Positions 38,061 to 58,705 of a stretch of DNA of 58,705 nt are shown here, piece after piece. The notes below the pieces were generated by a model, which did not search any database, was not told where the DNA came from, and saw nothing but the letters and a program-made list of their open reading frames with translations. The DNA comes from Ktedonobacteraceae bacterium. Lineage in GTDB: Bacteria; Chloroflexota; Ktedonobacteria; Ktedonobacterales; Ktedonobacteraceae. Every line of letters starts with the position of its first letter. Position 1 is the stretch's first letter. Where the stretch lies: positions 1 to 58,705 of the forward strand of contig DASRDB010000020.1 in the NCBI GenBank assembly GCA_035652815.1, read 5' to 3'. Both the position numbers and the translations under genes were made by a program.

Positions 38061-38771
38061 ATGGAGACGGAGGATAAGTTAGCTGAATTAGAGACACTGC
38101 TGCAGGTACAGTTTCATGACCGCTCGATTTTGCGGCGGGCGATCACGCATCATTCCTGTTGCCCGGAGACGGCTATTCGCGATTCCTACGATACGCTGGA
38201 ATTTCTGGGAGACGCGATACTTGGAGCGCATGTAGTCGAGTATATTTTTCGCAGCTTCCCGGAAGCCTCTGAAGGCGAGATGACGACGCTGAAGTCGGAG
38301 GCCGTAAGCCGCCGTGTGCTTGCGAAAATTGGCCAGGACCTCGGTCTCTTCCCCTATATTCGTGTCGATATCGCCAATCTGCGCACCTTCAACGAACGCT
38401 CCCGCGACTCGCTCTGCGCCGATGTGCTTGAGGCCATAGTAGGCGCAATCCAGATTGACCAGGGACCTGAAGCCGCCCGCGATTTTGTCGCTCGCGTTAT
38501 TTTTCCGGTGGTCGCTGAACTGAGTTTGCAGGCGCTCGATACCAATCCGAAGGGACGGTTGCAGAAAATTGTGTTGCAGCGCGCCGGATGCCTGCCGCGC
38601 TATCGCGTCCTGGAACAGAGCGGGCGCAACAATGACCGTATCTTCACGGTTGGCGTGTTTGAACACGAATTTCTGCTTGGTCTGGGCCAGGCTTCCAGCA
38701 TCAAGGAGGCCGGTCGTCTTGCGGCTCGCGAGGCGCTTGAAATCTTGCGCGAACAGGAAGACCTGATGTAG
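38061..38771 (+). CDS. rnc: ribonuclease III
   Basis: Signature 'YDTLEFLGDAILG' (ERLEFLGDA box) and a C-terminal dsRBD. Confidence 0.85.
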   Translation: METEDKLAELETLLQVQFHDRSILRRAITHHSCCPETAIRDSYDTLEFLGDAILGAHVVEYIFRSFPEASEGEMTTLKSEAVSRRVLAKIGQDLGLFPYIRVDIANLRTFNERSRDSLCADVLEAIVGAIQIDQGPEAARDFVARVIFPVVAELSLQALDTNPKGRLQKIVLQRAGCLPRYRVLEQSGRNNDRIFTVGVFEHEFLLGLGQASSIKEAGRLAAREALEILREQEDLM

Positions 38772-38774
38772 CCT

Positions 38775-40418
38775 ATGCAGATAGAAGTGATAGCGGACGA
38801 GCAGGTCAACTGGTACGAGACCAGCCTGCCCTTGAACGAGCGCAAACAGCGTGGTCACTTCTCGACGCCGCCTCAACTGGTTTCATACATCCTGGATGCC
38901 TGCGGGTATATTCCGGCTGCGGACCTTGCCGCTCTGCGCGTCCTTGATCCCGCCTGTGGGAGCGGCAACTTTTTAGCGGGTGCTGCAGGGCGACTTGCGG
39001 CTTTTGCTCAACGCGCTGGCCTTTCCTCATATGAAACAGAGACCCTGGTTGCGCGTAACATCTGGGGCTTTGATCCCGACCCCATCTCCTGTTTTCTCGC
39101 TGAGATGCAGGTGCGCGGCGTACTTAATAGCCCTCAAGAATATCTGAATCTGCACATTCACCAGGCCGATAGCCTTACGCTATCCTGGGAGCCATGCGTC
39201 GATCTCTTCCTGGCGAATCCGCCCTACCTTGCCGCTAAAAATAACGACTTGAGCGGCTATCGTTCGGCGCTGCAACGCGGGCAGGTCGATAGTTACCTGT
39301 TGTTTCTCGCGCTGGCGCTGCAGGTGGTGCGTCCCGGCGGCTGGATGGGACTGGTTCTGCCCGATCCTGTACTTGCCCGCGCCAACGCCACACGCGAACG
39401 AGAACAGTTGCTCGCTTCCTGCACCATTCAGCACCTCTGGCATCTCTCCGGCGTCTTTTCCGCCGAAGTTGGCGCGGTAGTGCTGATCGCTCAGAAGTCT
39501 CCCGCGCCCAGGCAGCATCTCGTATCCTGGTCGCGCGAACGCTGGCGTAATACCTTGCCTTCAGAGCAACAACAGGTCAAGCAGGAACTTTTCCAGCAGC
39601 AGCCCGGCTCCGAATTGCGCTACCTTTTGAGTAGCGAGCGCGGCGCGTACATAGAGCGTCTGCGAGTCTGCCTTGCTTCTCCGCCGGAGGGCAAGCGGCG
39701 TCTTGCTCCGCTTGGCGCATTCCTAACAATTTCACGTGGGGAAGAACTTGGCAGGGAAAGTAGTTTGCTTGTGGCGGAAAGTACCAGGGCGGGGCAAGCC
39801 CACGCCCCTACCATACGCGACTATGGTAGGGGCGTGGGCTTGCCCCGCCCTGGTAACACTACCGGCCCTGAAGAATATACCCATTATCATCCCGTCCTGC
39901 GCGGCGGCCTTGATATTCGCCCCTACTGCCAGCCACAGGCGCGCTGGTATATCGCATGTGAAGCTATAAAAAAGCCATTGGAGCGCTACCTTGCTCCCAA
40001 ACTGCTGGTTGTGAAAAGCACAGATAGGTTGCAGGCGACTTTGGATTTAAGGGGGCATGTGACATTGCAGGCGCTCTACTTGCTGCACTTACGCGATGCC
40101 AGTGAGCCGGTGGAAACGCTCTATTTTTATCTGGCCCTGCTCAATTCGCGTTTGTTACGTGATTATGTCTATTTTTTGCACACCGCTTATAAGTGGGTGC
40201 AGCCGCAGATTGAGCAGCGCGTGCTGGCGAATCTGCCAGTTCCTCTAGTCGATCAAAAAGAGCGGGAGAAGGTCATTGAGCTTGCGTCGGCTTGCAGCGA
40301 GGCAAGGGCCGTTGTAGAATTGAAACAGGATATTCCCCGCTTGCAAGAGGCGTTGGAACAGGCCATTTGCAGGCTCTATGACGGGATTATTGGAGACAAC
40401 GGAGTCGTAAACATATGA
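38775..40418 (+). CDS. N6-adenine DNA methyltransferase (gamma-class, TaqI/Eco57I-like)
   Basis: SAM motif I '[12 protein letters not shown]' and catalytic motif IV 'LANPPY', preceded by 'HFSTPP'. No restriction-enzyme gene is recognisable next to it. Confidence 0.7.
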
Positions 40419-42981: not shown

Positions 42982-43265
42982 GGACGTATTACCTCCCTTG
43001 CAATGTTAACTCATGCAAGTATAACACATCCTATCCTTAAAATGTAGAATATATTCGCAGAATAAGGCAAATTGGGGAAAAAATCGAGTGACAAAAGATG
43101 TTCCACGAAAAGACAACGGGATATCATCATCTTCGTCACCGCGCCCACAGAGTGATGAAGCGATTCCCGTTAGTAGGAAGTATACCATATTCTCTTGTGT
43201 TACAACAGTGCTTTTACAACGAGTTTGCAGCATAGCGTCAAAAACGGTTTTTGGGGCAGATACTT

Positions 43266-44087
43266 TTACATTTCTTCGATCCTTGTCTGCCCCATGCCCA
43301 TTGTTGTCTTATAGCCAACGCCTGCATACTGCGCGAACGCTGCCAGCGTGGCAAGTTGTGGGGCGTAGCCGTTGGTAGTTTTCACCTGATAGCTACAGGT
43401 GCCTAGAAAACCTTTCTGTAGGGCATGAGGAAAATGCAGGCAGGAAGTATGGAGTTCGTAGTCGCTGATTGCTACCTGCTGGCTCACAAAGTCGCGCAGT
43501 CCCTGTTTATTAATGCGCAGTATTTCGGGCGCGTAGCGATTCCAGGTGCGCATCAGACTATCCCAGACCAGAGAGGGTTCAGGAAAGAGCGCGAATTGCC
43601 GATTGCCCATGCTAAATGCGCATGGGCTGGCGAAACGCAGTGTAATAGTACGTTGCGCAGGTATAGCAGCCAGTGTTTGCCAGGAAGTGTGTCCCGCCCA
43701 ACCTGTAGGGTCGGTTTCGGCGGAAGAATACACCCGCGCCAGTTGAAATTCGGCCTGCCCCATCCTGAGCGTAATTGGAGAAGTCTCAAGAAAATAGCTG
43801 CTCAGGCACTGCCAGAGCGCGCCGCCATCAAGCAAGGTGATTCGGAGGCGATAGGGTTGCCCCGCCCGCAGTTGTAGCTGCCCATCGCGCACCAGCGCCC
43901 CATTCAACATGGACACGGTAAACGGTCGATAATCCGGTTCGTCATGCAAACGGGCAGCCAGGTCGGGCTGTACCTGCCGCACAAGATCAAGAAAGAGCGC
44001 GTGTGCCTGGTGGCCCGTTGTGGCTGGTATGTTTGTGCTTTCCAGGGCGTGAAGTTCGAGGGTGATAGAGTAGAGGAGGTTGGTCAT
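43266..44087 (-). CDS. cas6: CRISPR-associated endoribonuclease Cas6
   Basis: The C-terminal glycine-rich loop 'GVGYKTTMGMGQ' is typical of Cas6. 273 aa. Last gene of the cas effector operon. Confidence 0.7.
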   Translation of the reverse strand: MTNLLYSITLELHALESTNIPATTGHQAHALFLDLVRQVQPDLAARLHDEPDYRPFTVSMLNGALVRDGQLQLRAGQPYRLRITLLDGGALWQCLSSYFLETSPITLRMGQAEFQLARVYSSAETDPTGWAGHTSWQTLAAIPAQRTITLRFASPCAFSMGNRQFALFPEPSLVWDSLMRTWNRYAPEILRINKQGLRDFVSQQVAISDYELHTSCLHFPHALQKGFLGTCSYQVKTTNGYAPQLATLAAFAQYAGVGYKTTMGMGQTRIEEM

Positions 44088-46516
44088 TAATCGTCATCCC
44101 AATCAAAAATATGACTATCTGCTCTCCGGCCAACGAATTTTGCTCTGATAATATTGCTTTCATATGAGACGAGCAATGCTGCTGAACCTAACACGATAGT
44201 ATAGGTATGTTCACCTTCATTAGCGAAATCGACTCTCAGAGTGTTTGTGAATAATGAGGTTGTCTTTTGTAACCGTGCTAATGCGAGTGCTTCTGAGCCA
44301 ACGGCAGGCACAGCATAAAACGTAATATAGTTCTGTTCGAATAGGTTATTCAGTTCCGGCGGTATAAGTCCAGAGTCAGACTGTAGTCTAAAGCCGTTCC
44401 TGGCAGCTAGTTTACTGCAATATCGTGCTTCCCATTTTGCTTTTGTAGATGGTGAACCATTAAGGTAGAAATGTATGTTTAAAGGCTGCTCACGTAGCTG
44501 TTTGATTTTGCAAAAGAGTTTTATTTGCTTATCAAGAGCTATTCCTGATCGTTCTGTAAGTTTATCTAATTGCTGTTGGTCAACATTAAGCCAATCAGCA
44601 ATATAATTTTGCACAATATGCAATGCAGAATAAACAGTATACTCTGACGTAGCTAAAAATCCGGACGGATCATGGGCCAATGCTGATGGTGGCTGAAAAT
44701 TGTCACGAAAATTAAATCGGACATCAGCAGTATAAAACTCTTCTAACTCAGCCCATCGTTTTTTTTCTGCATCCACCGTTTTATGGCTTTTTAGCAAGGC
44801 CAGCTCTACTTTTTTCGACTGATTATGATCAATAGTATTTAGTGTATCCAGATCAATGTCCCGTTGTTCATCGAGCGTGCGCATAATGACGCTCGCAGGA
44901 CCAAATGTGAATTTCTCAGAATTTTTTTCGTGAAGGAGTTCAGGCAGGTGAGATTTTATGATTAAATAACGCTGCGTATTGGAAAGAAGATTTCTAAAGC
45001 TCGCTGTTTTTTTTGTTCCATAAGCCTGTACAATTGCTTGATACAATTTTTCTGCTTGATCTTTTTGCCCAGTTGGAAGTGCTTTCCATATGTTAAAAAT
45101 AGGTAGGAATGCCTCCGCAATTGCCCCGCTATTAATGTAAGCAAAGATGCCATTTTTTTGTGGAAGTATACTATTAATAAGTTTGTTCAGGTGCCTTCTT
45201 TCAATGCGTTGATTCGCAATCTCGTTTAATTCTGTTAACAATTGGTCAGGAACTACTGCCCAAACATCGCTTGGAAAGTAATACTCTTCCTTGCCTAATA
45301 CTCTTCCAGCTCTGCCCAACCGTTGAATAGATTCATCTGAACTACGAGCATCGAATACGAGAAAATCAATACTTTGTCGTTTTATCCCTGGCCGCGAAAA
45401 GTTATAGCCAATATCGACTGTTGGAGTAGCTAATAGCAAACGAGCAAGTTTATGTTGTTCTCGCCAGATTGCTGATTCTGCTCCGGTAAGCCGCCCTAAG
45501 TGGGTATTGTTTTTCCCTCCATATTCTTGATAGATCTGATTGATACGCCACAGAGCGCTACTAATACATGCACCATTTCGATTTTGATGAAGCCATTCTT
45601 CTATAGTAGCTTTAACTTGAGATGCCAAACTCACAAGCCCGTTTTCGAGGACTTCTGTACTATACAGTCGTAGATGGACTGGAGCAAGAGCAGGTGTAGT
45701 TTGTAAGCCACCTGGAATATTCTCTGGCTCGATGTAAGCAATATCAAGGTCTAGTTGTTTGAGATAATGCCTCACTTGTTCTGATGGGGTTGCAGTGAGT
45801 AAACAGACCCGTCGCCCTTGCTTGAAAAATCCCCATTCACGTGAAAGCATGAGGAAAAAGAGAAAATTGGCCAACTGTTTTGCATTATAATAATGAAATT
45901 CGTCCACTACTATATAGCTGAAATTTAAGATAAAGTCCCGAAAAAGAACTCTTTGATCGTGAGGGTTTCCTAAACTATAAAGTGCGTAGTAAAAGATATC
46001 AGGGTTAATTACTAAGATATAAGGATGATGGCCTTGTATGTGGTATCCCTCGCTATCTGTCAGAACAACCCGTGGATCTTGTAACATTTGATGAAGACGG
46101 TCTCCCTGGCGTATAAATTTTTCACTTAAATGCTGCTGCGCTAAAGAGCGGATGGTGGCAGCATCAAGACGAAGGACAATATACGATAAATTATTTTGTT
46201 TGATAAAAGTCTGTATATCCTCCTCGTGTTGACGGAGCAATTCATTGGTAGGTGCGATAAATAGCACATTGGCATTAGTAGTATATCTATCTTTTTTATA
46301 AGTCTCATCCAGGTCTAAAAGACGAAGTAAAGCTGCTTTTGTTTTACCTGTGCCTGTGTTAAAACTGTTGACAACAATGTGTGCGGTTTTGTTCTGGTAG
46401 GTAAGCCACTGGTGATAGAGCGGCGGTGAGCCTAATGCGTCCGCTAATTTCGTGTAATTTTCGGCAAAAGGGTTGGCTAATGGCTCGTAGTGAGGTGCAA
46501 GCTCAAGTTGTATCAT
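44087..46516 (-). CDS. cas3: CRISPR-associated helicase Cas3' (SF2 DExH helicase with no HD nuclease domain)
   Basis: Walker A 'NTGTGKTKAAL', DExH 'VVDEFHYY', motif III 'LLTATP', motif VI 'QRLGRAGR'. No H...HD motif is present. Confidence 0.85.
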   Translation of the reverse strand: MIQLELAPHYEPLANPFAENYTKLADALGSPPLYHQWLTYQNKTAHIVVNSFNTGTGKTKAALLRLLDLDETYKKDRYTTNANVLFIAPTNELLRQHEEDIQTFIKQNNLSYIVLRLDAATIRSLAQQHLSEKFIRQGDRLHQMLQDPRVVLTDSEGYHIQGHHPYILVINPDIFYYALYSLGNPHDQRVLFRDFILNFSYIVVDEFHYYNAKQLANFLFFLMLSREWGFFKQGRRVCLLTATPSEQVRHYLKQLDLDIAYIEPENIPGGLQTTPALAPVHLRLYSTEVLENGLVSLASQVKATIEEWLHQNRNGACISSALWRINQIYQEYGGKNNTHLGRLTGAESAIWREQHKLARLLLATPTVDIGYNFSRPGIKRQSIDFLVFDARSSDESIQRLGRAGRVLGKEEYYFPSDVWAVVPDQLLTELNEIANQRIERRHLNKLINSILPQKNGIFAYINSGAIAEAFLPIFNIWKALPTGQKDQAEKLYQAIVQAYGTKKTASFRNLLSNTQRYLIIKSHLPELLHEKNSEKFTFGPASVIMRTLDEQRDIDLDTLNTIDHNQSKKVELALLKSHKTVDAEKKRWAELEEFYTADVRFNFRDNFQPPSALAHDPSGFLATSEYTVYSALHIVQNYIADWLNVDQQQLDKLTERSGIALDKQIKLFCKIKQLREQPLNIHFYLNGSPSTKAKWEARYCSKLAARNGFRLQSDSGLIPPELNNLFEQNYITFYAVPAVGSEALALARLQKTTSLFTNTLRVDFANEGEHTYTIVLGSAALLVSYESNIIRAKFVGRRADSHIFDWDDD

Positions 46517-47226
46517 AGTTTTTCCACTCCGTAGCGCATATCTGCGGGTAAGTAGGTATTCTGATCAATCTGCCAGAATTGTCCTCGCATCTGTACATCC
46601 CGTAGTATCGGTGCTGGATGGATATTGTAAGAGGAATAAACAAGCAAATTGTTTGTGTCAGCTAAATCAGTCGCATTCAGTAAGCTGTTGACTTTTACTT
46701 GCTCACGTTGGACTAACTGAGCCACCATTTTTGTCTGCCAGTCTATTTTTGCTTTGCTCATAAATTTTCCTAATCTGATGTAAGGCAAGAGTCGAGGACC
46801 CTTGCCTTCCTCAATCAGATGGTCACGGTCAAGCAAGTAAAAAGATGCCTTGCTTCCTAAACCCAGCATGCGAATACGACCGCCCTGTGGGTAATTCATT
46901 GCCCTGATTTTTTCAAGGGTAGTAGCAATGGCATTTTGAGCAAAACGAAAGTAGTAACTATCCGTTTGTCCGTTAAACCTTGTGATAACCATGCGCAAAC
47001 TACTAAAATCAGCAGGTGTAATATAGAGACCCTGCTCATTGAGTGGTGTAAGGTCTTCCTTGTAGCGCGGACCACCTCGCCCACGATAGGGAGAGTTACA
47101 TAGCCCAAGAGCATAGGTAAGGGCATAGTTCCCAATGAGCGGTTCGCTGGCATAAAGCGGGTCAATTTCACGACTAGCAAAGAATGTATGCTCACAGAGA
47201 GTCAGATTGGCAGGGTAAATGTGCAT
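46513..47226 (-). CDS. cas5: Cas5-family (Csc1-like) effector-complex subunit
   Basis: Size, position between the Cas7 and Cas3' genes, and a Gly-rich RAMP-like segment 'GLGSKASFYL'. Its stop overlaps the cas3' start (ATGA). Confidence 0.5.
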   Translation of the reverse strand: MHIYPANLTLCEHTFFASREIDPLYASEPLIGNYALTYALGLCNSPYRGRGGPRYKEDLTPLNEQGLYITPADFSSLRMVITRFNGQTDSYYFRFAQNAIATTLEKIRAMNYPQGGRIRMLGLGSKASFYLLDRDHLIEEGKGPRLLPYIRLGKFMSKAKIDWQTKMVAQLVQREQVKVNSLLNATDLADTNNLLVYSSYNIHPAPILRDVQMRGQFWQIDQNTYLPADMRYGVEKL

Positions 47227-47235
47227 GACTGCCTC

Positions 47236-48210
47236 CTATGATCTCCTGTAACTTGCCGTAAGGTTTTTCAGAGCCTCAACGAAGCCCATCTGCTCATAGT
47301 AAAGCTGACCAACTCCATGAAGCTCTGCTTCCAATTTTTCTCCCGTTAAAAGAACAGGTTTTTGGCTGAATATGCCTTTGAGTAGCGAATCGGTAGCGGA
47401 GAGCATCGCTCTCTCAACTTCCTGATCGTTAAGCGGAAATGGTAGTTCATCCTTGTTCTCTGGCTTGAGAATATCATGGACAGCCTGAGTAAGTTCCAGG
47501 TTGCTGAACAACTCACAATCACTAAAGGCTACGGCCACAATTTTGTTTTTGACTTTACCAAGTCTGCTTGAAATGGCTCCATAACGTTCGCTGCGGATGA
47601 TATTGCCGATGACATACTGTAATTCAACCAGCGTAACATCCTTAAGGGTTTCGATATCGAGGAAATGTGCTTGTGGACGCACATACTCATCTTTGTTAAT
47701 GCTCCTGCTTGCCTCGCCAGTTTCGGGATTACGCATCGTCCCATTATCAAATGTAGCATTAAATGTGCGGCGTCCAGCTACTTGAGCGCTAGCTCCAAGC
47801 GAATAGGCATCATCAGTAAATACTCGACTTTTTTGCGCCCCGTTGCCACCTGCTGCAAATCCGTAAAGGTAGCAATCTATGCACTTTTCGCAAGGAGCGT
47901 TAGTGTTGAGCATACAAATTTTGCCATCTTTGTTTTGCAGTAATAACCCATGCCGATTTAAAAATTCGCGTCCTTTTCGGCGTTCCACTGCAGTTTGTTT
48001 GCGCTTACTGATGACCACTCGCCTGATTGGCGTGGTATCAACAAGGCCAGCGCTCACTGTCTCTTTCACCAACTCCTCGCCGCTTCCCTCGGTACGAAAA
48101 ATGGTTTCTGATTCGGTCTTCCGAAGAATAAAGAGGCTGACATAATAGCCTTTGGGCATGTTGCTGTATTTTTCCAGCAGGTATTCTTTATAGTCTTCAA
48201 ACGCGGCCAT
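47236..48210 (-). CDS. cas7: Cas7-family (Csc2-like) backbone subunit
   Basis: 324 aa. Contains a C-x2-C-x2-C cluster 'CEKCIDCYLYGF' and a Gly-rich segment, as in type I-D Csc2. Operon position. Confidence 0.5.
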   Translation of the reverse strand: MAAFEDYKEYLLEKYSNMPKGYYVSLFILRKTESETIFRTEGSGEELVKETVSAGLVDTTPIRRVVISKRKQTAVERRKGREFLNRHGLLLQNKDGKICMLNTNAPCEKCIDCYLYGFAAGGNGAQKSRVFTDDAYSLGASAQVAGRRTFNATFDNGTMRNPETGEASRSINKDEYVRPQAHFLDIETLKDVTLVELQYVIGNIIRSERYGAISSRLGKVKNKIVAVAFSDCELFSNLELTQAVHDILKPENKDELPFPLNDQEVERAMLSATDSLLKGIFSQKPVLLTGEKLEAELHGVGQLYYEQMGFVEALKNLTASYRRS

Positions 48211-48247
48211 TTCTGAATATTCCTTTCTTGTGTGTACCTTTTAAGAG

Positions 48248-48700
48248 CTATTCATCTACATCCATTGACAATTGCTTTACCTCTTCTGCCTGCTCTGCAT
48301 CGACTTCTTCCTTTTCTCCCTCAGTTAAGGCATCCCGGTAGTAGGTGAGATAAGCGCTACGTATGAGTTTGTTCCGTGTGAGTAATCGATTAACATCACC
48401 TCCATTTGCCTTGTTTAGCACACCATCGAAGAATAAATCGACGTACTCACGGATGATGTCCTGCTTCCGCTCTCGTTTCTCTCTCCCTGGTTTGTACTTT
48501 GGCTCAGTTATAGCGTCAATGTGATCGAAAATTTGCCGTTCTGAAGCCCTCCGTACCAGGTCACGAACATCTTCTTTTGGCTCCCGCTCAAGATTCTCCA
48601 GGATGATATCTAGAGGCTTGAGGATGGAGTTGCGTTTGTTTGAGCGTCCTTTGATGCGCTCCCCAGCCGCAACGGTTGCCATTTGTTTTAATGGTTCCAT
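48248..48700 (-). CDS. small alpha-helical protein; candidate standalone Cas11 (small subunit)
   Basis: 150 aa, charged and helical. Starts 6 bp after the large-subunit stop, with an AAGGAG RBS inside the upstream gene's 3' end. Confidence 0.4.
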   Translation of the reverse strand: MEPLKQMATVAAGERIKGRSNKRNSILKPLDIILENLEREPKEDVRDLVRRASERQIFDHIDAITEPKYKPGREKRERKQDIIREYVDLFFDGVLNKANGGDVNRLLTRNKLIRSAYLTYYRDALTEGEKEEVDAEQAEEVKQLSMDVDE

Positions 48701-48706
48701 GGTCGT

Positions 48707-51385
48707 TTACTCCTTTACAATTTCAGCCAATAATGGGGCTACACGCTTGCTCAGGTAAAAAGCCAGGTTTTCGGAAGAAACTGGTTTACCTGCAATTTGG
48801 TTTTGTTGAACAGGATTCTTATTGGTTGTTTTATGTGCCGACTTCGCTTCCTGTGCCTTTTTTTCAATTGTGAGATCAACGATGTGATACACCGAGAGAG
48901 GATCATCGAGCAAAGACTCAGCCACCTCCACCACAAATTTGTCACGGTCTTCTATGTTCAAATTCAAGAGTTGAGATAGCTGTAATAATGCGGAAAGGCG
49001 CCTGACAATATTCTCATAAGCTGCATAACCCTGATCATCTAGCCGCTCGTTGTACCAATGATCTTTGCGTTTGATGTATTCCGCGCCGCCATCTCGTTGT
49101 TTCCCATCCCGGTATACTTCGACACTACGGTATGCGTCTGCTGGCAATAACCATCGCAAGTTGAGTGGCACACCATCGACAAAGAAGGCGAGCTTTTGCT
49201 CAACCATATATTCGTCAGTAAGTAGAGGGATGGGAGTACGTGACATCGCCACACGACAACCAAAGAAATCAGCAATCATTAGTGCTTGAGTAAGCGCAAA
49301 TAGAAATTGCTCTGTATAATTTTCTCCTGGTGCATTGAGAGGCAATGTTGGAGTATTACATATAGCTTCACTGAAATCCGGTACATTCAAGCCATTTACT
49401 TTTGTGGAATAACCGGTAAATGGTTGTGTGGAGTTATCAATGATTTGCTCGGCTCTTTTGACCGCCTCAGAACCGAGGTTGCGTTGAAGTTGAACTTCCC
49501 ACTGCTTGAAGTAGTTTTCCCTCTTTAAGAAGAAAGACGTATTATCTTCATGGCAAACTCTTTTTAAAGTGGAATAAAATGCATCCAGGTACGGCGCTGT
49601 GAAAAAGGAATAGGGGTAAAAGTGGAGATAGAAACTGGTATACAGTTCCCGTAACTTTTTTTCCCCTCTTTTTTGTTTCCTATTGTAGGTAACACATGTC
49701 AGTTTTTCAAGAAGGAATAGAATTCGGCATATTGGACAAACATTCCTTTTGGGGTCTCTGGCTCCTCCTCTCAAACGATTGCTAAATACCTGTACCCCTA
49801 TACTTGCTGGCACTTCTGATTCCATTAACTCTACAGTTTTTAAGGATGAGCTACAAGTACAACATTGTTTGTACTGATCTTTAGAATACCGGCGTAAATG
49901 CAATGCAAAATCTCGTACTATTCCGGTACCTCCGATCTCAAGATTGTTAGTGAGATAGTTCAGGTACTCATCGCTTTGGACTGCTGAAACTTGCTCTCCT
50001 GTCAAAGCAGATAAATCTGCTAGCATTCGCTCAAAAAGAACTTCTATATCATAAGTGCTGTCACGTGCAATGAAGTAGCCGCGTCGAAAGCTATCCACCT
50101 GATTGTAGAGAGCATAATGATCTGCTGGTAGGTTGAGTAAACCATACACGTGAGTCCAGGGATCGCAATTATATTTCTTTTTTAGTTCTTTCTTGAGGTG
50201 ATCTTGCAGTAAGTTACGATATGCTAGAGCAAGTTCTCCCCGTTTGAACAAACTTTGTTCAAGGGGAACTATTGGTTTTGAACTGTTAATTAGGGCATTA
50301 GCCTGCAATGCTATAACAGGATCAGGATTCCTGGCCGCATTTTCAATATCTGGGAGTAACCGCTGGTTATATTCTTCATGCCATTTTGTCTTCCAGCTTT
50401 TCTGCTCAACACGCTTACGCAGTACATATAATATGTCAATGTAACTGGCTCCACTTTCTATAGCAGAGTCAGGTACTTTGATTCCAGATGATTTTGCCTT
50501 GATTAATTGATAAAGGCCATTTCTCTGCTTATCAGCGATGATCTGCGCGAGTTGCTCTGCGACATGCAATGTATCGCTATGAGACCAGGTAAATGGCTCG
50601 CGTTCTGGTATCAAGTAGGCAACACCATCTGGATAGTAAAGTAAATCCGCGATAACTGTTTGATTATTGTGGGTATGCCTCTCCTTGAGATACTTAACCA
50701 CAGTATTGTGGATGAGGTTGCTAAGCAGCCCTCGATTTTCTCCTAGCCGGTGTGTTACCCAACGCCAGCGTCTTTCTGAGATAGCATTAACTTGTGCTAA
50801 AAAATTGTCTTTGTGGTGGTTTTCAGCCAATGTGTGGGAAAGATCAAGATTATCGACAGCATACATGAGTTTCCCAAGTTCAAGTAGCCTTTGATAGTTT
50901 AGTCGATAATTATGGTTCTTTTGATTGAGGTCGATTAATGGGGCGCTATCGTGTTGGTGAAGAATAGTAATGAGCCAGATATCTTCGAGATATTCTTGCC
51001 ATTCAGGAAAGAAACGCCGGAAGTCAATGCGCTCTAATTCGGTTTGAATATTTTCAGGAGTCGCAATATTTGTGTAGCTTAATTTTACATCCCTGCCCCC
51101 ATAAGGCGGAATTTTATTGATATCGTGGATAGTGAATGCTCCAAAAAGCACCTGTTCTTCAAGATCATTTATTTCGGCTACCCCTGCCAGCCGCAATTTG
51201 TGGAACGTATTAATGCCATCGAGTATATGTGTATAATAGTTTTGTCCCTGTTTATTGCCTCCCTGAACAATGCGTCGGTAGTCAGTCATAGGACCATTAG
51301 CTACCTCTTGATAATAGGCTGCAAGTAAGCCTACCTGTTCTGCTTCCTCGATATCTACTAACCAGGCTAGTTCAATTTCCGACAT
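48707..51385 (-). CDS. cas10d: Cas10d-like large subunit with N-terminal HD nuclease domain (Cas3''-Cas10d fusion)
   Basis: HD motif I 'YTHILDGI' and motif II 'FTIHDINK' (compare Cas3 'LHDIGK'). A Cys cluster 'CCTCSSS...CPICRI' (zinc-finger-like) lies in the C-terminal half. 892 aa. Confidence 0.65.
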   Translation of the reverse strand: MSEIELAWLVDIEEAEQVGLLAAYYQEVANGPMTDYRRIVQGGNKQGQNYYTHILDGINTFHKLRLAGVAEINDLEEQVLFGAFTIHDINKIPPYGGRDVKLSYTNIATPENIQTELERIDFRRFFPEWQEYLEDIWLITILHQHDSAPLIDLNQKNHNYRLNYQRLLELGKLMYAVDNLDLSHTLAENHHKDNFLAQVNAISERRWRWVTHRLGENRGLLSNLIHNTVVKYLKERHTHNNQTVIADLLYYPDGVAYLIPEREPFTWSHSDTLHVAEQLAQIIADKQRNGLYQLIKAKSSGIKVPDSAIESGASYIDILYVLRKRVEQKSWKTKWHEEYNQRLLPDIENAARNPDPVIALQANALINSSKPIVPLEQSLFKRGELALAYRNLLQDHLKKELKKKYNCDPWTHVYGLLNLPADHYALYNQVDSFRRGYFIARDSTYDIEVLFERMLADLSALTGEQVSAVQSDEYLNYLTNNLEIGGTGIVRDFALHLRRYSKDQYKQCCTCSSSLKTVELMESEVPASIGVQVFSNRLRGGARDPKRNVCPICRILFLLEKLTCVTYNRKQKRGEKKLRELYTSFYLHFYPYSFFTAPYLDAFYSTLKRVCHEDNTSFFLKRENYFKQWEVQLQRNLGSEAVKRAEQIIDNSTQPFTGYSTKVNGLNVPDFSEAICNTPTLPLNAPGENYTEQFLFALTQALMIADFFGCRVAMSRTPIPLLTDEYMVEQKLAFFVDGVPLNLRWLLPADAYRSVEVYRDGKQRDGGAEYIKRKDHWYNERLDDQGYAAYENIVRRLSALLQLSQLLNLNIEDRDKFVVEVAESLLDDPLSVYHIVDLTIEKKAQEAKSAHKTTNKNPVQQNQIAGKPVSSENLAFYLSKRVAPLLAEIVKE

Positions 51386-51462
51386 CTGTTATTGCGACCT
51401 TTCAAGAATAATTTTTCTTTCTCAATCCCCATTATACCCATCCCCAATAAGCGCAATTGCGC

Positions 51463-52455
51463 TCACTCCTTCGGAGTATGATACATGTTGTAGAGGTTGA
51501 GGCTGATGGCGCGGAAAATCTCTACAAGTTCGGGCGGTTCCAGTATCTCGCAGTGGTCGGCGTAACCGATCAGGATGCGGCGCGCTTCGAACAGGTCGGT
51601 GATGGTGGCGGTGATGGTGGCCGAACCATCTCCGGCATGCGTCACCTCCTGGTTTTCAAAGTGCTTGCTGACACTGTTGCGGGCGATGACCGCGTGCAGT
51701 TTGTATTTCAACCTGTATGCGACCGGTTTAGGTCGGCTGGTTGCGATTCTGGTTGGCAGCACTTCGGCGCTGCCGGGAACAATATAGTCCAGGCGAAATT
51801 GCAGGCGGCTCTCGCGCCGGAGACTCCAACCGTACAGGTAGACATGCCCATGCTCATATTTGAGCGGTTCCGGCTCGACCACATGATTCAGTTCTTTGCC
51901 ATGTTTGGGAGAACGGTAACGAAAGGCGAGTTGTTGTCTCTGGCGAATGGCGCGTTCGATTTTTTTAACCGTTTCCTGGTCCGCGTTGCGGTAATCGGTT
52001 GTCTCGTGCAGGTCGATGCTGAAAGGATTCCGCAGCGACTCCACCATTTTTTGCTGCTCGAGAGGCAGGCGGCTGACAAGGGAGGTGAGCAGGGCGCGAA
52101 TCTCATCCGCGTGCAGGATGGCGCTCTGGTCAAAGGTGTTGAACAGGGTTGCGAGCGCGGTAAGCTGTTCCTGGTTGAGCGAGAGGCCGAATGGAGAATT
52201 TTGCCAGGTATACTCTTTGCGCTGTTTATCAAATATGACCTGGCAACCCAGCGCTCGCAAAGCCTGGATATCACGGCGAAATTGATACAGCCTTTGCTTT
52301 TCATGGGCAGGTCCATCCTTTGCCTCGTCGCTGAAAAGTCGTTCTTTGTCCAGGATAGCGATGAGGTTATCAGTGGTGCGCGGGCCTGTATGGAGCAAAA
52401 CGAGCAGACGCAGACGCCGTCGCGCCGCCCGTTCGCTGGCTGTATCACTTTTCAT
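51463..52455 (-). CDS. WYL-domain transcriptional regulator (HTH-WYL-WCX type), cas-associated
   Basis: N-terminal winged helix 'RRLRLLVLLHTG.RTTDNLIAIL'. Central WYL-like block 'HVVEPEPLKYEHGHVYLYGWSLRRESRLQFRLDYI'. Lies 77 bp upstream of cas10d on the same strand. Confidence 0.65.
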   Translation of the reverse strand: MKSDTASERAARRRLRLLVLLHTGPRTTDNLIAILDKERLFSDEAKDGPAHEKQRLYQFRRDIQALRALGCQVIFDKQRKEYTWQNSPFGLSLNQEQLTALATLFNTFDQSAILHADEIRALLTSLVSRLPLEQQKMVESLRNPFSIDLHETTDYRNADQETVKKIERAIRQRQQLAFRYRSPKHGKELNHVVEPEPLKYEHGHVYLYGWSLRRESRLQFRLDYIVPGSAEVLPTRIATSRPKPVAYRLKYKLHAVIARNSVSKHFENQEVTHAGDGSATITATITDLFEARRILIGYADHCEILEPPELVEIFRAISLNLYNMYHTPKE

Positions 52456-52501
52456 GAAAAGCGCGCCTTCTAGCCTGTGAATATTCAAAATGATTCGGAA
52501 T

Positions 52502-52581
52502 GTTGTAGGGACGCGCTTCATGCGTTCACCGATCCTGAAGGCAGGTGACAGGCAGGACGCGATGAAGCGCGTCCCTACAAC
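52502..52581. promoter_or_regulatory. 20-bp perfect inverted repeat (gttgtagggacgcgcttcat ...40 bp... atgaagcgcgtccctacaac) in the divergent intergenic region between the WYL regulator and cas4
   Basis: Read directly. Same GTAGGGACGCG palindrome family as 32008-32278. Candidate operator or divergent-promoter element. Confidence 0.4.
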
Positions 52582-52652
52582 GTTACGCTATCGTAGTACG
52601 GTCGCGTTTATTTGTCAACAAACAAGCGTAAAACGAGTAGGAAAGGAATGAA

Positions 52653-53348
52653 ATGAAACGTGGAGAGATGAGCGGAGAAGCATCAAGACAGGAGCGTGAA
52701 TGGCTGCCGATTTCTTTGCTCAATGCCTATGCCTATTGCCCGCGTCGATTTTACTATGAATTTACGATGGCGGAGATGGTAGTGAATGAGCATGTGCTTG
52801 AGGGACAGATGCTGCACGAGCGCGTTGATCTGCCGGGAAATACGTGGCGTGACGAGAAGGTGCAACTGCGGCATATCTATCTTTGCGCCCCTGCTCTGGG
52901 CATTGTGGGGTACTGCGATCTGCTCGAGCGAGAGGGAACGGGGCATGATCTCGCCGCGCTGGCAATGCAAAATCGGCTCTATCCTGTCGAGTACAAGAAG
53001 GGCAAAATGGGGAAGTGGCTCTCCGATCATACCCAGCTGTGCGCGCAGGCGCTGGCACTGGAAGAAGTGTTGCAGATTCCAGCCTGGAGTATACGACGTG
53101 GCTACGTGTTTTATGTTGGCTCCGCTCGCCGCGATGAAGTAAGCATCGATGCCGCGTTGCGAGAAGGCACGCTGGCGACCATTGAGGAAGCGCGTGCGCT
53201 TGCCCTGCGCGATACGCCGCCCTTGCCCATCACGAACTGGCGCAAGTGCCGCGATTGCTCGCTTGAGCCAATTTGCCTTCCCCGCGAAGTCCTGGCATTA
53301 CAATCACATAAAGTAGGAGCAGAGCATGGCGATAGTGTATCTGACTGA
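52653..53348 (+). CDS. cas4: CRISPR-associated exonuclease Cas4 (RecB-like nuclease with 4-Cys Fe-S cluster)
   Basis: N-terminal Cys 'YAYCPRRFYYE' and the C-terminal 'CRDCSLEPIC' triad give the Cas4 C-x(n)-C-x2-C-x5-C pattern. RecB motif 'DLL..E......VEYK'. Confidence 0.85.
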   Translation: MKRGEMSGEASRQEREWLPISLLNAYAYCPRRFYYEFTMAEMVVNEHVLEGQMLHERVDLPGNTWRDEKVQLRHIYLCAPALGIVGYCDLLEREGTGHDLAALAMQNRLYPVEYKKGKMGKWLSDHTQLCAQALALEEVLQIPAWSIRRGYVFYVGSARRDEVSIDAALREGTLATIEEARALALRDTPPLPITNWRKCRDCSLEPICLPREVLALQSHKVGAEHGDSVSD

Positions 53349-54435
53349 ACAGCAATCCTGGGTAAACCGCGAGGGAGACTGCCTGATTGTGCATATTCCG
53401 GTGCGCGATGAAAATGGAAAGGCCTCTGGCAAGCGAGAACGAAAAAAGACCATTCCGCTTTTCAAAGTAGAAGAGGTCATTGTCATGGGCGATATCACCA
53501 TCAGCACGCCAGCGCTTGCCAGCCTCTTACAAGCGAAGGTGCAGATCACCTACTTGAGCAAATGGGGAGACTATCGCGGGACACTGAGTCCTGCTCTGAC
53601 ACGCAATAGCCTGCTGCGTATTGCTCAGCACAAAGCCTATGCCAATGGCGCGATGCGGCATCAGATCGCGCGCCGCTTTGTGATTGGCAAACTGCGTAAT
53701 ATGCGCACCATGTTAATGCGCTACCAGCGCCAGTATCCTGATCCGGTGATTGGAGAACAGGTGGATTGCCTGAAACGCTGTATTCTTGCCGCTCAGCAGA
53801 CCGCCTATCACGAGGAGGGTATAGCGACCAGCGAACTTGATGCTGAGATGGATGGCAGGAGCGAGCCTGATAGAATGCATGGTCTCGGTTCGCTGATTGG
53901 ATGCGAGGGTGCGGGTAGTGCTGCCTATTTTAGCGTCTTTGACAGGCTTATCAAATGTGATTGGCAGCATGGCTTTACTAAGCGCTCTCGCCGCCCGCCG
54001 ACTGATCCGGTGAACGCGCTCTTAAGTTACGGCTATGTGGTGCTGGCCTCGCAAGTTGCCAGCATGCTTGCGCTGGTTGGCTTTGATCCCTATGTAGGCT
54101 ACCTGCATGCCTCGCGCTACGGCAAGCCCGCCCTTGCGCTTGACCTGATGGAAGAATTTCGTCCTTTAATTGTTGACTCGGTCGTACTCAGCCTGCTCAA
54201 TAATCGCCAGCTTGAGGCGAAAGATTTTGAGTTTGAACTGAACAGTTATCGTATGACCGATGGCACAAAGCGACTGTTTCTGGAGAAATTTGAGGAGCGT
54301 ATGCAGGAAGTTATTATTCATCCTGTGTTTGGAAACAAAGCCACATATCGCCATTGTATTGAAACGCAAGGCAGACTGCTTGCCAAATATTTAACAGGTG
54401 AAATTGAGCAGTACATGCCCTTTACCGTTCGTTAA
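53326..54435 (+). CDS. cas1: CRISPR-associated integrase Cas1
   Basis: 369 aa. Overlaps the cas4 end by 23 bp and precedes cas2. Cas1-like N-terminus 'VYLTEQQSWVNREGDCLIV' and a conserved His/Glu-rich C-terminal half. Confidence 0.85.
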   Translation: MAIVYLTEQQSWVNREGDCLIVHIPVRDENGKASGKRERKKTIPLFKVEEVIVMGDITISTPALASLLQAKVQITYLSKWGDYRGTLSPALTRNSLLRIAQHKAYANGAMRHQIARRFVIGKLRNMRTMLMRYQRQYPDPVIGEQVDCLKRCILAAQQTAYHEEGIATSELDAEMDGRSEPDRMHGLGSLIGCEGAGSAAYFSVFDRLIKCDWQHGFTKRSRRPPTDPVNALLSYGYVVLASQVASMLALVGFDPYVGYLHASRYGKPALALDLMEEFRPLIVDSVVLSLLNNRQLEAKDFEFELNSYRMTDGTKRLFLEKFEERMQEVIIHPVFGNKATYRHCIETQGRLLAKYLTGEIEQYMPFTVR

Positions 54436-54445
54436 GGAGAGAAAG

Positions 54446-54763
54446 ATGGGTCAGGGAAACGGGGGACACGCGCGGGGAGTCAGGCAAAGCAGCTTTTACG
54501 TCGTTGCCTATGATATCCCTGATGACAAAAGGCGCACACAGGTACATAAAATCTTAAAAGGCTTCGGCACCTGGACCGAATTCTCGTTGTTTGAATGTTT
54601 TCTCACAAAAAAAGAGGTGCTGCAAATGAAAGCCAAACTCGCCAAACACCTTGATCCCAGCGAGGACCGCGTGCGCATCTACACGCTCTGCGAAACCTGC
54701 CTGGACAAAATAGAAACCGCAGGCATCCCCGAACCAGTTGAAGAAACCAGCTATCTTGTCTAA
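54446..54763 (+). CDS. cas2: CRISPR-associated endoribonuclease Cas2
   Basis: 'FYVVAYDIPDDKRRTQVHKILKGFGTWTEFSLFEC' is the canonical Cas2 N-terminal block. AGGAG RBS. The ATG at 54446 lies 10 bp after the cas1 stop. Confidence 0.85.
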   Translation: MGQGNGGHARGVRQSSFYVVAYDIPDDKRRTQVHKILKGFGTWTEFSLFECFLTKKEVLQMKAKLAKHLDPSEDRVRIYTLCETCLDKIETAGIPEPVEETSYLV

Positions 54764-54971: not shown

Positions 54972-57900
54972 GTTGGAAAGAGGTTTGACGCGATTGGGCG
55001 ATTGAAACTAAGGATGTATAGTGATTTTCGTCAAAGGAGAGTTGTTGGAAAGAGGTTTGACGCGATTGGGCGATTGAAACTGGCTAGTGATGTTGTGGAA
55101 TTGCCACAAGAAACACAAGGTTGGAAAGAGGTTTGACGCGATTGGGCGATTGAAACTTTTTGGAGGATTCCGCCGGAGCGTTCCGTAAAATCGATGGTTG
55201 GAAAGAGGTTTGACGCGATTGGGCGATTGAAACAGCGCAAATAGCAAAGTTGGAGATGATCTTAAGGGAGTTGGAAAGAGGTTTGACGCGATTGGGCGAT
55301 TGAAACTGCCACTCTTCAATGTGTGCTAGTTCACGGTTTGAGGTTGGAAAGAGGTTTGACGCGATTGGGCGATTGAAACGCGGATTATGGGAGTGGTTGG
55401 AAGTGAATGAAGAAATGTTGGAAAGAGGTTTGACGCGATTGGGCGATTGAAACCTATCGCGCATTCCTCAGAGGGCAAGACCCGCTTGATAGTTGGAAAG
55501 AGGTTTGACGCGATTGGGCGATTGAAACGAGATGTGTAAAGGAAAGCCATTGGGCGTAGAGTCTATTGGTTGGAAAGAGGTTTGACGCGATTGGGCGATT
55601 GAAACAAAGTCAACATCTACCAGTTTGAAGAGACCTACGACACCGTTGGAAAGAGGTTTGACGCGATTGGGCGATTGAAACGAAGTTGGCTTGTGTGACG
55701 TGTGCCTCAGAGCCATTCAGTTGGAAAGAGGTTTGACGCGATTGGGCGATTGAAACAACAGACTACACCAACGAAAGAAACAGATTCTCGCGTCGTTGGA
55801 AAGAGGTTTGACGCGATTGGGCGATTGAAACATCGTTGTCGAAATCGGGCCGATTCCGAACGTATCGTTGGAAAGAGGTTTGACGCGATTGGGCGATTGA
55901 AACTACATCGATTCGCTGTTTTATATAAGCGATGAGCCGGAGTTGGAAAGAGGTTTGACGCGATTGGGCGATTGAAACCGCTCCTTTATCGAGGATGGCG
56001 GCGTGTGCGTTGTTGGCATGTTGGAAAGAGGTTTGACGCGATTGGGCGATTGAAACACGGAAGCGGCGAGTGACTTCATCTATTTTTTCTTGGTTGGAAA
56101 GAGGTTTGACGCGATTGGGCGATTGAAACCGCATGTTCTGAATGTGGCTGTCCAGTTCGCTCGCTTCGAGTTGGAAAGAGGTTTGACGCGATTGGGCGAT
56201 TGAAACCGAGGAGATCTTCATTTACGAGTTTGTCAGGACCTATATGTTGGAAAGAGGTTTGACGCGATTGGGCGATTGAAACCCCCCTCCGATCTCCGGG
56301 TTGCTTATCTCAAGCTGCGGTTGGAAAGAGGTTTGACGCGATTGGGCGATTGAAACCGCAATAAGTCGCTCGATTCACCCCCCTCAATTTCCAGCGTTGG
56401 AAAGAGGTTTGACGCGATTGGGCGATTGAAACGTTATAGGGAATGGGCAGCCGCTTGAAACGGCGCGTGTTGGAAAGAGGTTTGACGCGATTGGGCGATT
56501 GAAACTCCGATTTGCGCGCCGAGGCCTCAGCAGACCGACCAGGTTGGAAAGAGGTTTGACGCGATTGGGCGATTGAAACAATTTCAACGTGAGCTTAGTC
56601 GAGCCAACAGTGGGAAGTTGGAAAGAGGTTTGACGCGATTGGGCGATTGAAACCTTTTCAACAGCAATTCCTTATTCCTACCTACGGCTTTTGTTGGAAA
56701 GAGGTTTGACGCGATTGGGCGATTGAAACCCGTTGGCTATTGGACTTCTCAGATTTTCAGTCTGAGCGGTTGGAAAGAGGTTTGACGCGATTGGGCGATT
56801 GAAACACAGTTACAGGCACCGTCAGCGTAGATATGATCTACGGTTGGAAAGAGGTTTGACGCGATTGGGCGATTGAAACAAGCAACAACACCGCAGGATG
56901 CGCCTGCGGTGTTTACGTTGGAAAGAGGTTTGACGCGATTGGGCGATTGAAACTCATTCACATCGAATGGCACCCCCGTGTCAAAATTCGTTGGAAAGAG
57001 GTTTGACGCGATTGGGCGATTGAAACTAGGCTGTAAAGGCTTTCCAGTTCTGGTAGGCCACTTTGGGTTGGAAAGAGGTTTGACGCGATTGGGCGATTGA
57101 AACTCTTCGCCGTTTTCTTTGAGGAAAGGTTGCAATTCCGTTGGAAAGAGGTTTGACGCGATTGGGCGATTGAAACATTGCCAGCACTGCGGAAAGCAGA
57201 TTCCGCCTGAAAGTTGGAAAGAGGTTTGACGCGATTGGGCGATTGAAACCTTTCTCCTCCTACTAGCCAACGGCGGGCGCGTTGCGTTGGAAAGAGGTTT
57301 GACGCGATTGGGCGATTGAAACGTACGCAGCTTGCGTGTATTCGCTTCTACGAGCGTATCGTTGGAAAGAGGTTTGACGCGATTGGGCGATTGAAACACG
57401 ACTCCCTACGGCTAAAGCCGAGGGCTTCTCAGGGTTGGAAAGAGGTTTGACGCGATTGGGCGATTGAAACCTGCTCCAAATCACACCGGATGGCAACGCT
57501 CTTTTGGAGGTTGGAAAGAGGTTTGACGCGATTGGGCGATTGAAACATGGCAGATACGGACATCACGAGCCGAGCCACAAGGGAGTTGGAAAGAGGTTTG
57601 ACGCGATTGGGCGATTGAAACAAAATCAATAATAAACCAGACTGGAAAAATATTGCTGTTGGAAAGAGGTTTGACGCGATTGGGCGATTGAAACATCATA
57701 GGAGCTATCCGACCAGGGCATCTGCCCAAGTTGGAAAGAGGTTTGACGCGATTGGGCGATTGAAACTCTGATGTCTAATACACCTGGAATTTTAGATAAG
57801 GGCGTTGGAAAGAGGTTTGACGCGATTGGGCGATTGAAACTTCAATGGATTGTTGATACAGGGTATTTGCGGCCCGGTTGGAAAGAGGTTTGACGCGATT

Positions 57901-58705
57901 GGGCGATTGAAACCTGGCTGGCTTATTTACTTACGTATACCCGCCTGAGAGGTTGGAAAGAGGTTTGACGCGATTGGGCGATTGAAACTTTCTTCGACAT
58001 GGATACAAACCCTTTCCTCACGCCTCGTTGGAAAGAGGTTTGACGCGATTGGGCGATTGAAACCTGGCACCGGACTGGCAACAGGTCAAATCGAGGCCGG
58101 TTGGAAAGAGGTTTGACGCGATTGGGCGATTGAAACCTGCGCTGCTGCGCAGACGCAGGCCTCTCCCACGCGCAGTTGGAAAGAGGTTTGACGCGATTGG
58201 GCGATTGAAACGTAGCGCGATTTCCCGCTCTGGAGGTTCAGCACGCCTAGTTGGAAAGAGGTTTGACGCGATTGGGCGATTGAAACGTCTTTGTCGATAT
58301 CGATCCGCACACCCTGAATGTGGTTGGAAAGAGGTTTGACGCGATTGGGCGATTGAAACACAAGGGCAAGGGGAGGCCTTGCCGGTTGAAGTACAGGGTT
58401 GGAAAGAGGTTTGACGCGATTGGGCGATTGAAACATATGGTACTCCATAATGGAGTTGTACAGCCAGCACGTTGGAAAGAGGTTTGACGCGATTGGGCGA
58501 TTGAAACCTCCTATTGTTATTAAGTACTCCATTAAATCGGTTTGCACGTTGGAAAGAGGTTTGACGCGATTGGGCGATTGAAACCTGGAAGGGTCGGGCG
58601 CTGCAATGCCCCTGTCTGGCGTTGGAAAGAGGTTTGACGCGATTGGGCGATTGAAACCGTGATATGAGTGGAAGACAGCCAACACGTGTACTACGTTGGA
58701 AAGAG
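54972..58705 (+). CRISPR. CRISPR array with 50 complete 37-bp repeats plus a truncated 51st at the window edge. Repeat GTTGGAAAGAGGTTTGACGCGATTGGGCGATTGAAAC; spacers ~35-39 bp
   Basis: Repeats were counted by eye from 54972, 55044, 55119 ... 58621, with a partial repeat at 58695. Period 72-77 bp. The repeat ends in ATTGAAAC (the typical 8-nt crRNA 5'-handle source), consistent with plus-strand transcription from the cas2-proximal leader. Confidence 0.95.

Follow-up and report, generated by a model that had tools for sequence, protein, structure and literature searches.

A separately encoded cas11d in a type I-D CRISPR-Cas locus of Ktedonobacteraceae, with signs of gene fission at an internal translation start

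In CRISPR-Cas systems of type I-D the small subunit Cas11d has been described as a product of internal translation within cas10d, the gene of the large subunit, an arrangement that according to McBride et al. and a 2023 review 'appeared widely conserved' across all Cas10d lineages (bioRxiv 10.1101/2020.04.18.045682). A contig from a Ktedonobacteraceae bacterium (DASRDB010000020.1 of assembly GCA_035652815.1, positions 1–58,705; these 58,705 nucleotides (nt) are referred to throughout as the window) raises the question of whether this subunit can also be a gene in its own right and, if so, how such a gene arose. The first-pass annotation of this DNA had taken internal initiation as the described state of type I-D systems and set against it an open reading frame (ORF) of 150 amino acids (aa) directly after cas10d. 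Its account of the described systems agrees with McBride et al. and the review, but not with one sentence in the legend to the review's supplementary Fig. S1, which records a separate cas11 gene in the I-D locus of Haloarcula sp. Atlit-47R. The 150-aa ORF is very probably cas11d, encoding the small subunit of a Cascade of type I-D from a cistron of its own after a cas10d that ends at the boundary of the Cas11 domain. The elements concerned are as follows.

48248–48700, minus strand: probable cas11d, stand-alone small-subunit gene, 150 aa, with its ATG at 48698–48700
48707–51385, minus strand: cas10d (csc3), 892 aa, the large subunit, with an HD nuclease domain at the N-terminus and no Cas11 domain at the C-terminus, the last part being four helices
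48707–48709, minus strand: TAA stop of cas10d, which shares the frame of cas11d, with a 6-nt spacer (48701–48706) after it
48710–48715, minus strand: AAGGAG Shine-Dalgarno sequence (SD) of cas11d, 9 nt before the ATG and supplied by the K-E pair that ends the coding part of cas10d as its final two sense codons

On the coding strand the junction reads GTA AAG GAG TAA ACG ACC ATG GAA, with a gap of 6 nt, and both genes lie in one reading frame, separated solely by the TAA plus two codons. The coordinates first given for the ORF, its distance of 6 bp from the cas10d stop and the AAGGAG ribosome-binding site within the cas10d 3' end all agree with the sequence. An identical junction is found on scaffold L028 of an ENA metagenome, which may share the window's sample (loci and proteins of the comparison carry the labels L and P). 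The small gene stands next to cas10d in an I-D effector operon with its own initiation signals (AAGGAG-N9-ATG), followed by csc2, csc1, cas3' and cas6. The proposal that the two products add up to a typical Cas10d holds only approximately, since their sum of 1042 aa is about 55–120 aa above that of fused relatives (921–988 aa); the Cas10d body is ca. 75 aa longer and the acidic tail of Cas11d contributes ca. 20 aa extra.

Identification of the small ORF depends chiefly on its relation to the C-terminus of fused Cas10d proteins. The PADLOC profile Cas10_Id (PDLC01588, 859 positions) is matched by the 892-aa protein at positions 13–740 (E 5e-112) and by the 150-aa protein at positions 738–856 (E 3e-20), and these complementary stretches of one Cas10d profile support the identity of the small ORF as cas11d. 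Three further Cas10d profiles, together with TIGR03174, place the 150-aa protein at the extreme C-terminus. Against TIGR03174 the large protein scores 96.7 bits (cutoff 60), and the small one 16.5 bits (E 0.0017, model positions 839–944 of 946), which is below the curated 60-bit cutoff. The comparison with canonical Cas10d C-termini suggested at the outset proved positive, BLASTP pairing the 150-aa protein with residues 819–944 of the 945-aa fused protein P0124 (37% identical, E 2e-23); its alignment covers the C-terminal ~125 aa of fused Cas10d proteins, and against fused P0146 its M1 pairs with the internal M813. The predicted fold is a compact alpha-helical bundle, superimposable on solved Cas11d, and the structural comparison with Cas11, likewise suggested, returned 7sba_J as the best Foldseek match (TM 0.68). 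The core of the protein (residues 1–125) is basic, with an isoelectric point (pI) of 9.65, which would fit nucleic-acid contact. The C-terminal 25 aa (residues 126–150; window 48248–48325) are acidic, with 11 D/E and a pI of 4.05; this composition is kept across the Chloroflexota clade and is absent in fused relatives and in other split lineages, which end near profile position 128–135.

The large protein matches 7sba_I by sequence, and its AlphaFold2 model (mean confidence, pLDDT, 82.8) places the final four helices at residues 790–891. The TAA at 48707–48709 ends Cas10d ahead of the Cas11 domain, so that the canonical I-D architecture, with Cas11d inside the cas10d ORF, is not found here. 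A cryptic second Cas11 domain in the split Cas10d was considered and rejected, hhalign giving a probability of 0.08 for the Cas11d family against its last 128 aa. As the stop precedes the domain and nothing in these last 128 aa resembles the Cas11d family, the window's Cas10d is, judged from its sequence, a protein without a Cas11 domain. A 100%-identical copy of it, P0080, has no match to the Cas11d hidden Markov model (HMM) either, and the same is true of all 42 split relatives scored, P0080 among them.

The separation extends far beyond this contig. Homologues of the 150-aa ORF, followed down to 45% identity, form 79 clusters, all of 106–166 aa and none of them fused. Fifteen contigs, drawn from five sources (NCBI, JGI, Logan, ENA and SRC), encode the identical protein, and NCBI HZS79214.1, from a Ktedonobacteraceae metagenome-assembled genome (MAG), is this same protein under the name 'hypothetical protein'. 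Homologues of Cas10d form two groups that part at ca. 35% identity to the query. The Cas11d HMM finds no match in 43 of the 44 closest (at least 34% identity, fragments included), P0099 alone carrying the domain; 71 of the 72 more distant ones (35% or less) carry Cas11d from residues ~800–850 on, the exception being a 713-aa fragment. Counted at one genome per species, related genome loci number 26, of which 22 are split; among these are the loci of three cultured organisms, Ktedonobacter racemifer DSM 44963, Thermogemmatispora aurantia and T. tikiterensis, and that of a Thermogemmatispora sp. MAG. The four fused loci belong to Anaerolineae (two), Desulfuromonadales and Halanaerobacter. In 20 split loci compared, the junction varies from an 8-nt overlap through ATGA overlaps and gaps of 4–7 nt to spacers of up to ~60 nt, and cas11d is offset from the cas10d frame by 0, 1 or 2 in 8, 7 and 5 loci, respectively. 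Compared with 11 related loci, cas11d has proportions of nonsynonymous and synonymous differences (pN and pS) of 0.15–0.39 and 0.79–0.96, the latter saturated, for which reason dN/dS proper is not computable. These comparisons set the ORF well apart from a chance reading frame, and they show that in a deep clade with its centre in Chloroflexota (Ktedonobacteria) the split is conserved and purifying selection acts on cas11d. Together with alignment, profiles and fold, this clade-wide conservation supports the original proposal of an independent Cas11 gene split from the large subunit.

Some members of the set deviate. In two loci from MFD MAGs cas10d lies in two or three frames (L024, 3282–5996; L007, 3248–6336), and in L007 cas11d is cut to 111 aa; either the loci are in decay or indel errors have broken them. 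A split-type locus on a 130,796-nt contig (L010) belongs to a MAG that is labelled Acidobacteriaceae and not assigned to Chloroflexota, for which horizontal transfer could be the cause, or else faulty binning or labelling.

Two alternatives deny that the ORF is a separate cas11d. In one, the ORF encodes some other small helical protein, such as a Csm2/Cmr5-like Cas11 of type III, a regulator or an anti-CRISPR-like factor, that merely lies beside cas10d. A Pfam scan of the 150-aa and 892-aa proteins returned no matches, as did a phmmer search of PDB sequences with the 150-aa protein, even at E 10, and small helical bundles readily give spurious fold matches; only profiles and fold comparison reveal the kinship with solved Cas11d. 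This alternative is nonetheless hardly credible, being refuted by the Cas10d profile match and the BLASTP alignment to fused Cas10d, and family models or structures of type III Cas11 (Csm2/Cmr5) gave no match for the ORF. The other alternative, which the first-pass annotation had itself named as a possible refutation, holds that either faulty sequencing or a recent nonsense mutation breaks one continuous cas10d at 48707–48709. The shared frame of the two ORFs, one TAA and two codons apart, is what such an event would leave, and the close relative P0099 is indeed continuous across the junction site. The repetition of the junction on L028 and of the protein on 15 contigs, the stand-alone state of all 79 homologue clusters and the purifying selection on the small ORF nevertheless speak against it, as does the intact array of 50 repeats; moreover, in 12 of the 20 split loci cas11d is out of the cas10d frame or overlaps it, and no single-base repair gives one ORF. 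With the separation conserved in a deep clade and junctions in all three frames, an artefact or pseudogene is very improbable.

How did the separate gene arise? Every split locus has AAGGAG or GGAGG 4–12 nt before the cas11d start, formed in the window's subclade by the terminal K-E codons of cas10d. In the fused loci L012, L016, L018, L026 and L027 the same SD and start codon are found internally at the homologous site, where K-G-E/A/G codons supply the SD and 2–3 codons separate it from an ATG or GTG (for example atgAAAGGAGaagagacgATG in L012 and ttgAAAGGAGcagaacgtATG in L018). Because the same signals exist inside fused genes, the split is read as gene fission at a pre-existing internal initiation site. 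A stop codon would have been gained within the 2–3 codons that part the internal SD (K-G/E, AAR GGA G) from the start of Cas11d, and the internal initiation site of McBride et al. would thereby have become a normal boundary between cistrons. Fission of the gene through such a stop between SD and start is, we infer, the simplest reading of these sequences. Trees of Cas10d, built by neighbour joining (NJ), midpoint-rooted and without support values, favour this reading within those limits: in that of the Cas10d bodies the split forms group together with fused P0099 inside, and in a broad tree the split clade nests among fused Cas10d lineages.

The reverse step appears to have been taken as well. 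P0099 (1013 aa; L027, 926–3967, GCA_009772695.1) is 58% identical to the window's protein in the Cas10d body and 71% in the Cas11d part, and reads ...IVKGENLMEALKQMAT where the window has ...IVKE*TTMEPLKQMAT. It keeps the SD and ATG inside one ORF (GTA AAA GGA GAA AAC CTT ATG). Its operon order is that of the window, but it is a single ORF of canonical internal-start architecture nested in the split clade. As its cluster holds five 1013-aa members from several sources, P0099 is, on sequence grounds, a real re-fusion and not a one-off error. The same locus has in the cas3' position (L027, 5694–9128) a 1144-aa gene with a Pfam match to rve_3 (integrase core) besides DEAD/ResIII; a transposase may have inserted into cas3' or fused with it.

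Splits are also found elsewhere, among cases that are not genuine. A profile search of 1.84 billion cluster representatives yielded 148 relatives, and 36 apparent stand-alone proteins are scattered among the fused ones in the representative library. Six of these were checked, of which three are artefacts and three are genuine independent splits (L030–L035 accepted). The candidates rejected as stand-alone Cas11d (L029, 121–528; L036, 25–438; L037, 38–460) lie at contig starts with their frame open to the contig edge, and are probably fused cas10d genes cut short by that edge, for which gene calling settled on the internal SD and ATG; such calling artefacts inflate database counts of stand-alone Cas11d. 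In the accepted cases, a Candidatus Sericytochromatia MAG (L030–L032, GC 23–25%) has a cas10d of 797 aa, then TAA, 12 nt and ATG; L033/L034, from a lineage with Phormidium tenue FACHB-1050 in its protein cluster, are split with an ATGA overlap; and a short JGI contig (L035) is split with a 23-nt overlap. The Cas10d bodies of the Sericytochromatia and Phormidium lineages cluster together in the NJ tree, away from the Chloroflexota-centred clade. These splits lie outside Chloroflexota and include cyanobacterial lineages, which the literature treats as uniformly internal-start.

In the proposed mode of action, ribosomes would start at AAGGAG-N9-ATG, whether they are newly recruited there or re-initiate once they have terminated 6 nt upstream. 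The complex of Synechocystis has the composition Cas10d1:Cas7d7:Cas5d1:Cas11d2, its minor filament being formed by the Cas10d C-terminus and two Cas11d (PMC9123187), and without Cas11d it has no detectable binding to double-stranded DNA (bioRxiv 10.1101/2020.04.18.045682). As in Synechocystis, several free Cas11d would line the belly of the filament of Cas7d and CRISPR RNA as a minor filament and stabilise the R-loop. Since Cas10d gives no covalently attached Cas11 domain, all minor-filament positions, probably three, would have to be filled by free Cas11d.

Fission is to be weighed against the opposite polarity, in which the separate cas11d is ancestral and the clade keeps a type III-like Cas10 and a separate Cas11 from before the I-D fusion. 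With close relatives only, the midpoint root does fall between the split and fused clades, and a four-helix segment closes the split Cas10d, as in type III Cas10, which according to Makarova et al. ends with four helices versus eight in fused Cas10d (PMC3150331). Broader sampling, on the other hand, nests the split clade deep within fused Cas10d diversity; the SD derives from the same K-G/E codons as in fused genes, for which fission at the internal start is simpler, and other split lineages (Sericytochromatia, Phormidium) lie elsewhere in the tree. An ancestral separate gene is accordingly improbable. About as improbable is a programmed read-through of the TAA, by which a minority Cas10d-Cas11d fusion (~1044 aa) would nucleate the minor filament and most Cas11d would be made separately. 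It draws on the in-frame arrangement with just two codons from stop to ATG in the window, L001, L004 and L009, and on the fused architecture that is the norm elsewhere and has been proposed as the filament nucleation point (bioRxiv 10.1101/2020.04.18.045682). Yet the frame offsets of 8/7/5 are indistinguishable from random, which excludes conserved in-frame read-through as a requirement, and close relatives (Cas11d 57–73% identical) have gaps of 4, 5 and 7 nt, with an ATGA overlap in K. racemifer. Fission into two independently translated genes remains the preferred reading, but several points weigh against it or limit it. The number and polarity of fission and fusion events follow from a parsimony argument only and are provisional, and the fused lineages P0208, P0209 and P0229 have their branches within the split clade or close to its base. 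Given the broken cas10d of the MFD MAGs, indel errors could have altered the frame at a few junctions. Expression, stoichiometry and assembly are drawn from homology, and a minor read-through fusion may be made in this genome, its junction being in frame (TAA plus two codons). A further-reaching idea is possible, though rather doubtful: that the attached Cas11 domain is unneeded for nucleation, that the HD large subunit is detachable as in type I-E and type III, with three free Cas11d, and that repeated fission (the Chloroflexota-centred clade, Sericytochromatia/Phormidium and the Haloarcula of the literature) together with at least one re-fusion makes the internal start a pre-formed gene boundary that toggles between the two states.

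The remainder of the locus comprises the following features.

47236–48210, minus strand: cas7d (csc2), 324 aa (Pfam PF18320, E 5e-95; TIGR03157, E 2e-82)
46513–47226, minus strand: cas5d (csc1), 237 aa (TIGR03159, E 6e-44; PADLOC Cas5d, E 3e-63)
44087–46516, minus strand: cas3' helicase of type I-D, 809 aa (TIGR03158, E 2e-47; PADLOC Cas3d, E 4e-83)
43266–44087, minus strand: cas6d, 273 aa (Pfam CRISPR_Cas6 and Cas6_N; PADLOC Cas6d, E 5e-45)
51463–52521, minus strand: putative transcriptional regulator with WYL and WCX domains, directly upstream of cas10d (Pfam WYL, E 2e-12; WCX, E 9e-11; PADLOC WYL)
52653–54763, plus strand: adaptation module of cas4 (52653–53348), cas1 (53326–54435) and cas2 (54398–54763), divergent from the effector operon
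54972–58657, plus strand: CRISPR array, 50 perfect 37-nt repeats GTTGGAAAGAGGTTTGACGCGATTGGGCGATTGAAAC (0 matches expected by chance)

This gene set is that of type I-D, with TIGR03174, TIGR03157, TIGR03159 and TIGR03158 all above their cutoffs and with Pfam Csc2 and Cas6 families. In Cas10d the HD dipeptide H87-D88 shows no variation across the alignment. The cas4 gene corresponds to Pfam PF01930, the Cas1 and Cas4 Pfam families are found on equal-length genes of scaffold L028, and cas2 is assigned by position and size only. The array, with at least 50 identical 37-nt repeats ending ...ATTGAAAC and spacers of ca. 35–41 nt, reaches the window end, and the uniformity of its repeats suggests recent activity. 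With a complete I-D gene set and 50 perfect repeats, the system looks functional. An Rfam scan of the whole window gave no matches, and a promoter and terminator scan of 43000–52700 found none above shuffle expectation and none at the cas10d–cas11d junction.

Several other ORFs of the window call for comment. Long minus-strand ORFs within the array (55763–56221, 56749–57399 and 58086–58685, for example) are spurious, being translated repeats. A 338-aa TTG-started ORF on the plus strand (51457–52473) is antisense to nearly all of the WYL regulator gene and is presumed to be a mirror ORF; of this pair it is the minus-strand regulator ORF that was scanned and has the family matches. Further away, at 38061–40418, an RNase III-like ORF (38061–38771, recognised from translation only) directly precedes a 547-aa N6-adenine DNA methyltransferase carrying Eco57I-like and TaqI-C specificity domains, with no adjoining restriction endonuclease recognised.

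McBride et al. raised the possibility that in some type I systems a fusion had 'reverted to two separate genes' (bioRxiv 10.1101/2020.04.18.045682), and their open question of 2020, whether large–small subunit fusions and a separate cas11 are interconvertible, receives a natural answer here, since one SD and start serves both fused and split genes and both states occur in one clade. Split systems further offer a natural means of testing whether the Cas11 domain attached to Cas10d can be dispensed with. Type I-D editing in eukaryotes requires separately supplied Cas11d, for which the split systems of cultured Ktedonobacter and Thermogemmatispora are ready two-gene versions. For annotation, stand-alone Cas11d proteins (HZS79214.1, MFN8673088.1, WP_190581578.1) are termed 'hypothetical protein' at NCBI and some are termed 'Csc3' at JGI, so that CRISPR typing tools could gain a stand-alone Cas11d model; the sub-cutoff TIGR03174 score (16.5 versus 60 bits) may explain the NCBI name of HZS79214.1. 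The locus is a little-documented architectural variant of a well-known system, and as it is neither a new system nor a new mechanism its significance is modest.

No literature was found on split cas10d/cas11d in Chloroflexota or Ktedonobacter, on the cyanobacterial split cases or on the homologous SD and start logic, although coverage of subscription journals was thin and absence is no proof; the Haloarcula legend is the sole I-D precedent found. Haloarcula sp. Atlit-47R likewise has a type I-D system with a separately encoded cas11, but is archaeal and is compared through the legend's mention only. In Synechocystis sp. PCC 6803, Cas11d (PDB 7SBA chain J; McBride et al. 2020, Schwartz et al. 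2022) arises from an internal in-frame start, M830, within cas10d, and Cas10d keeps an attached copy; in the window, by contrast, a stop ends Cas10d before the domain and Cas11d is a separate gene, with a structure-based identity of ~16% between the two Cas11d proteins. Relative to that of Synechocystis, Cas11d of the window's clade adds the acidic C-terminal tail of ~20 aa. The organisation is also like that of type III (csm2, cmr5), type I-A (csa5) and type I-E (cse2) systems, in which, as in the window, the large subunit and the small helical subunit are encoded by adjoining separate genes, and the minor filament consists entirely of free subunits, the same as is proposed for the window.
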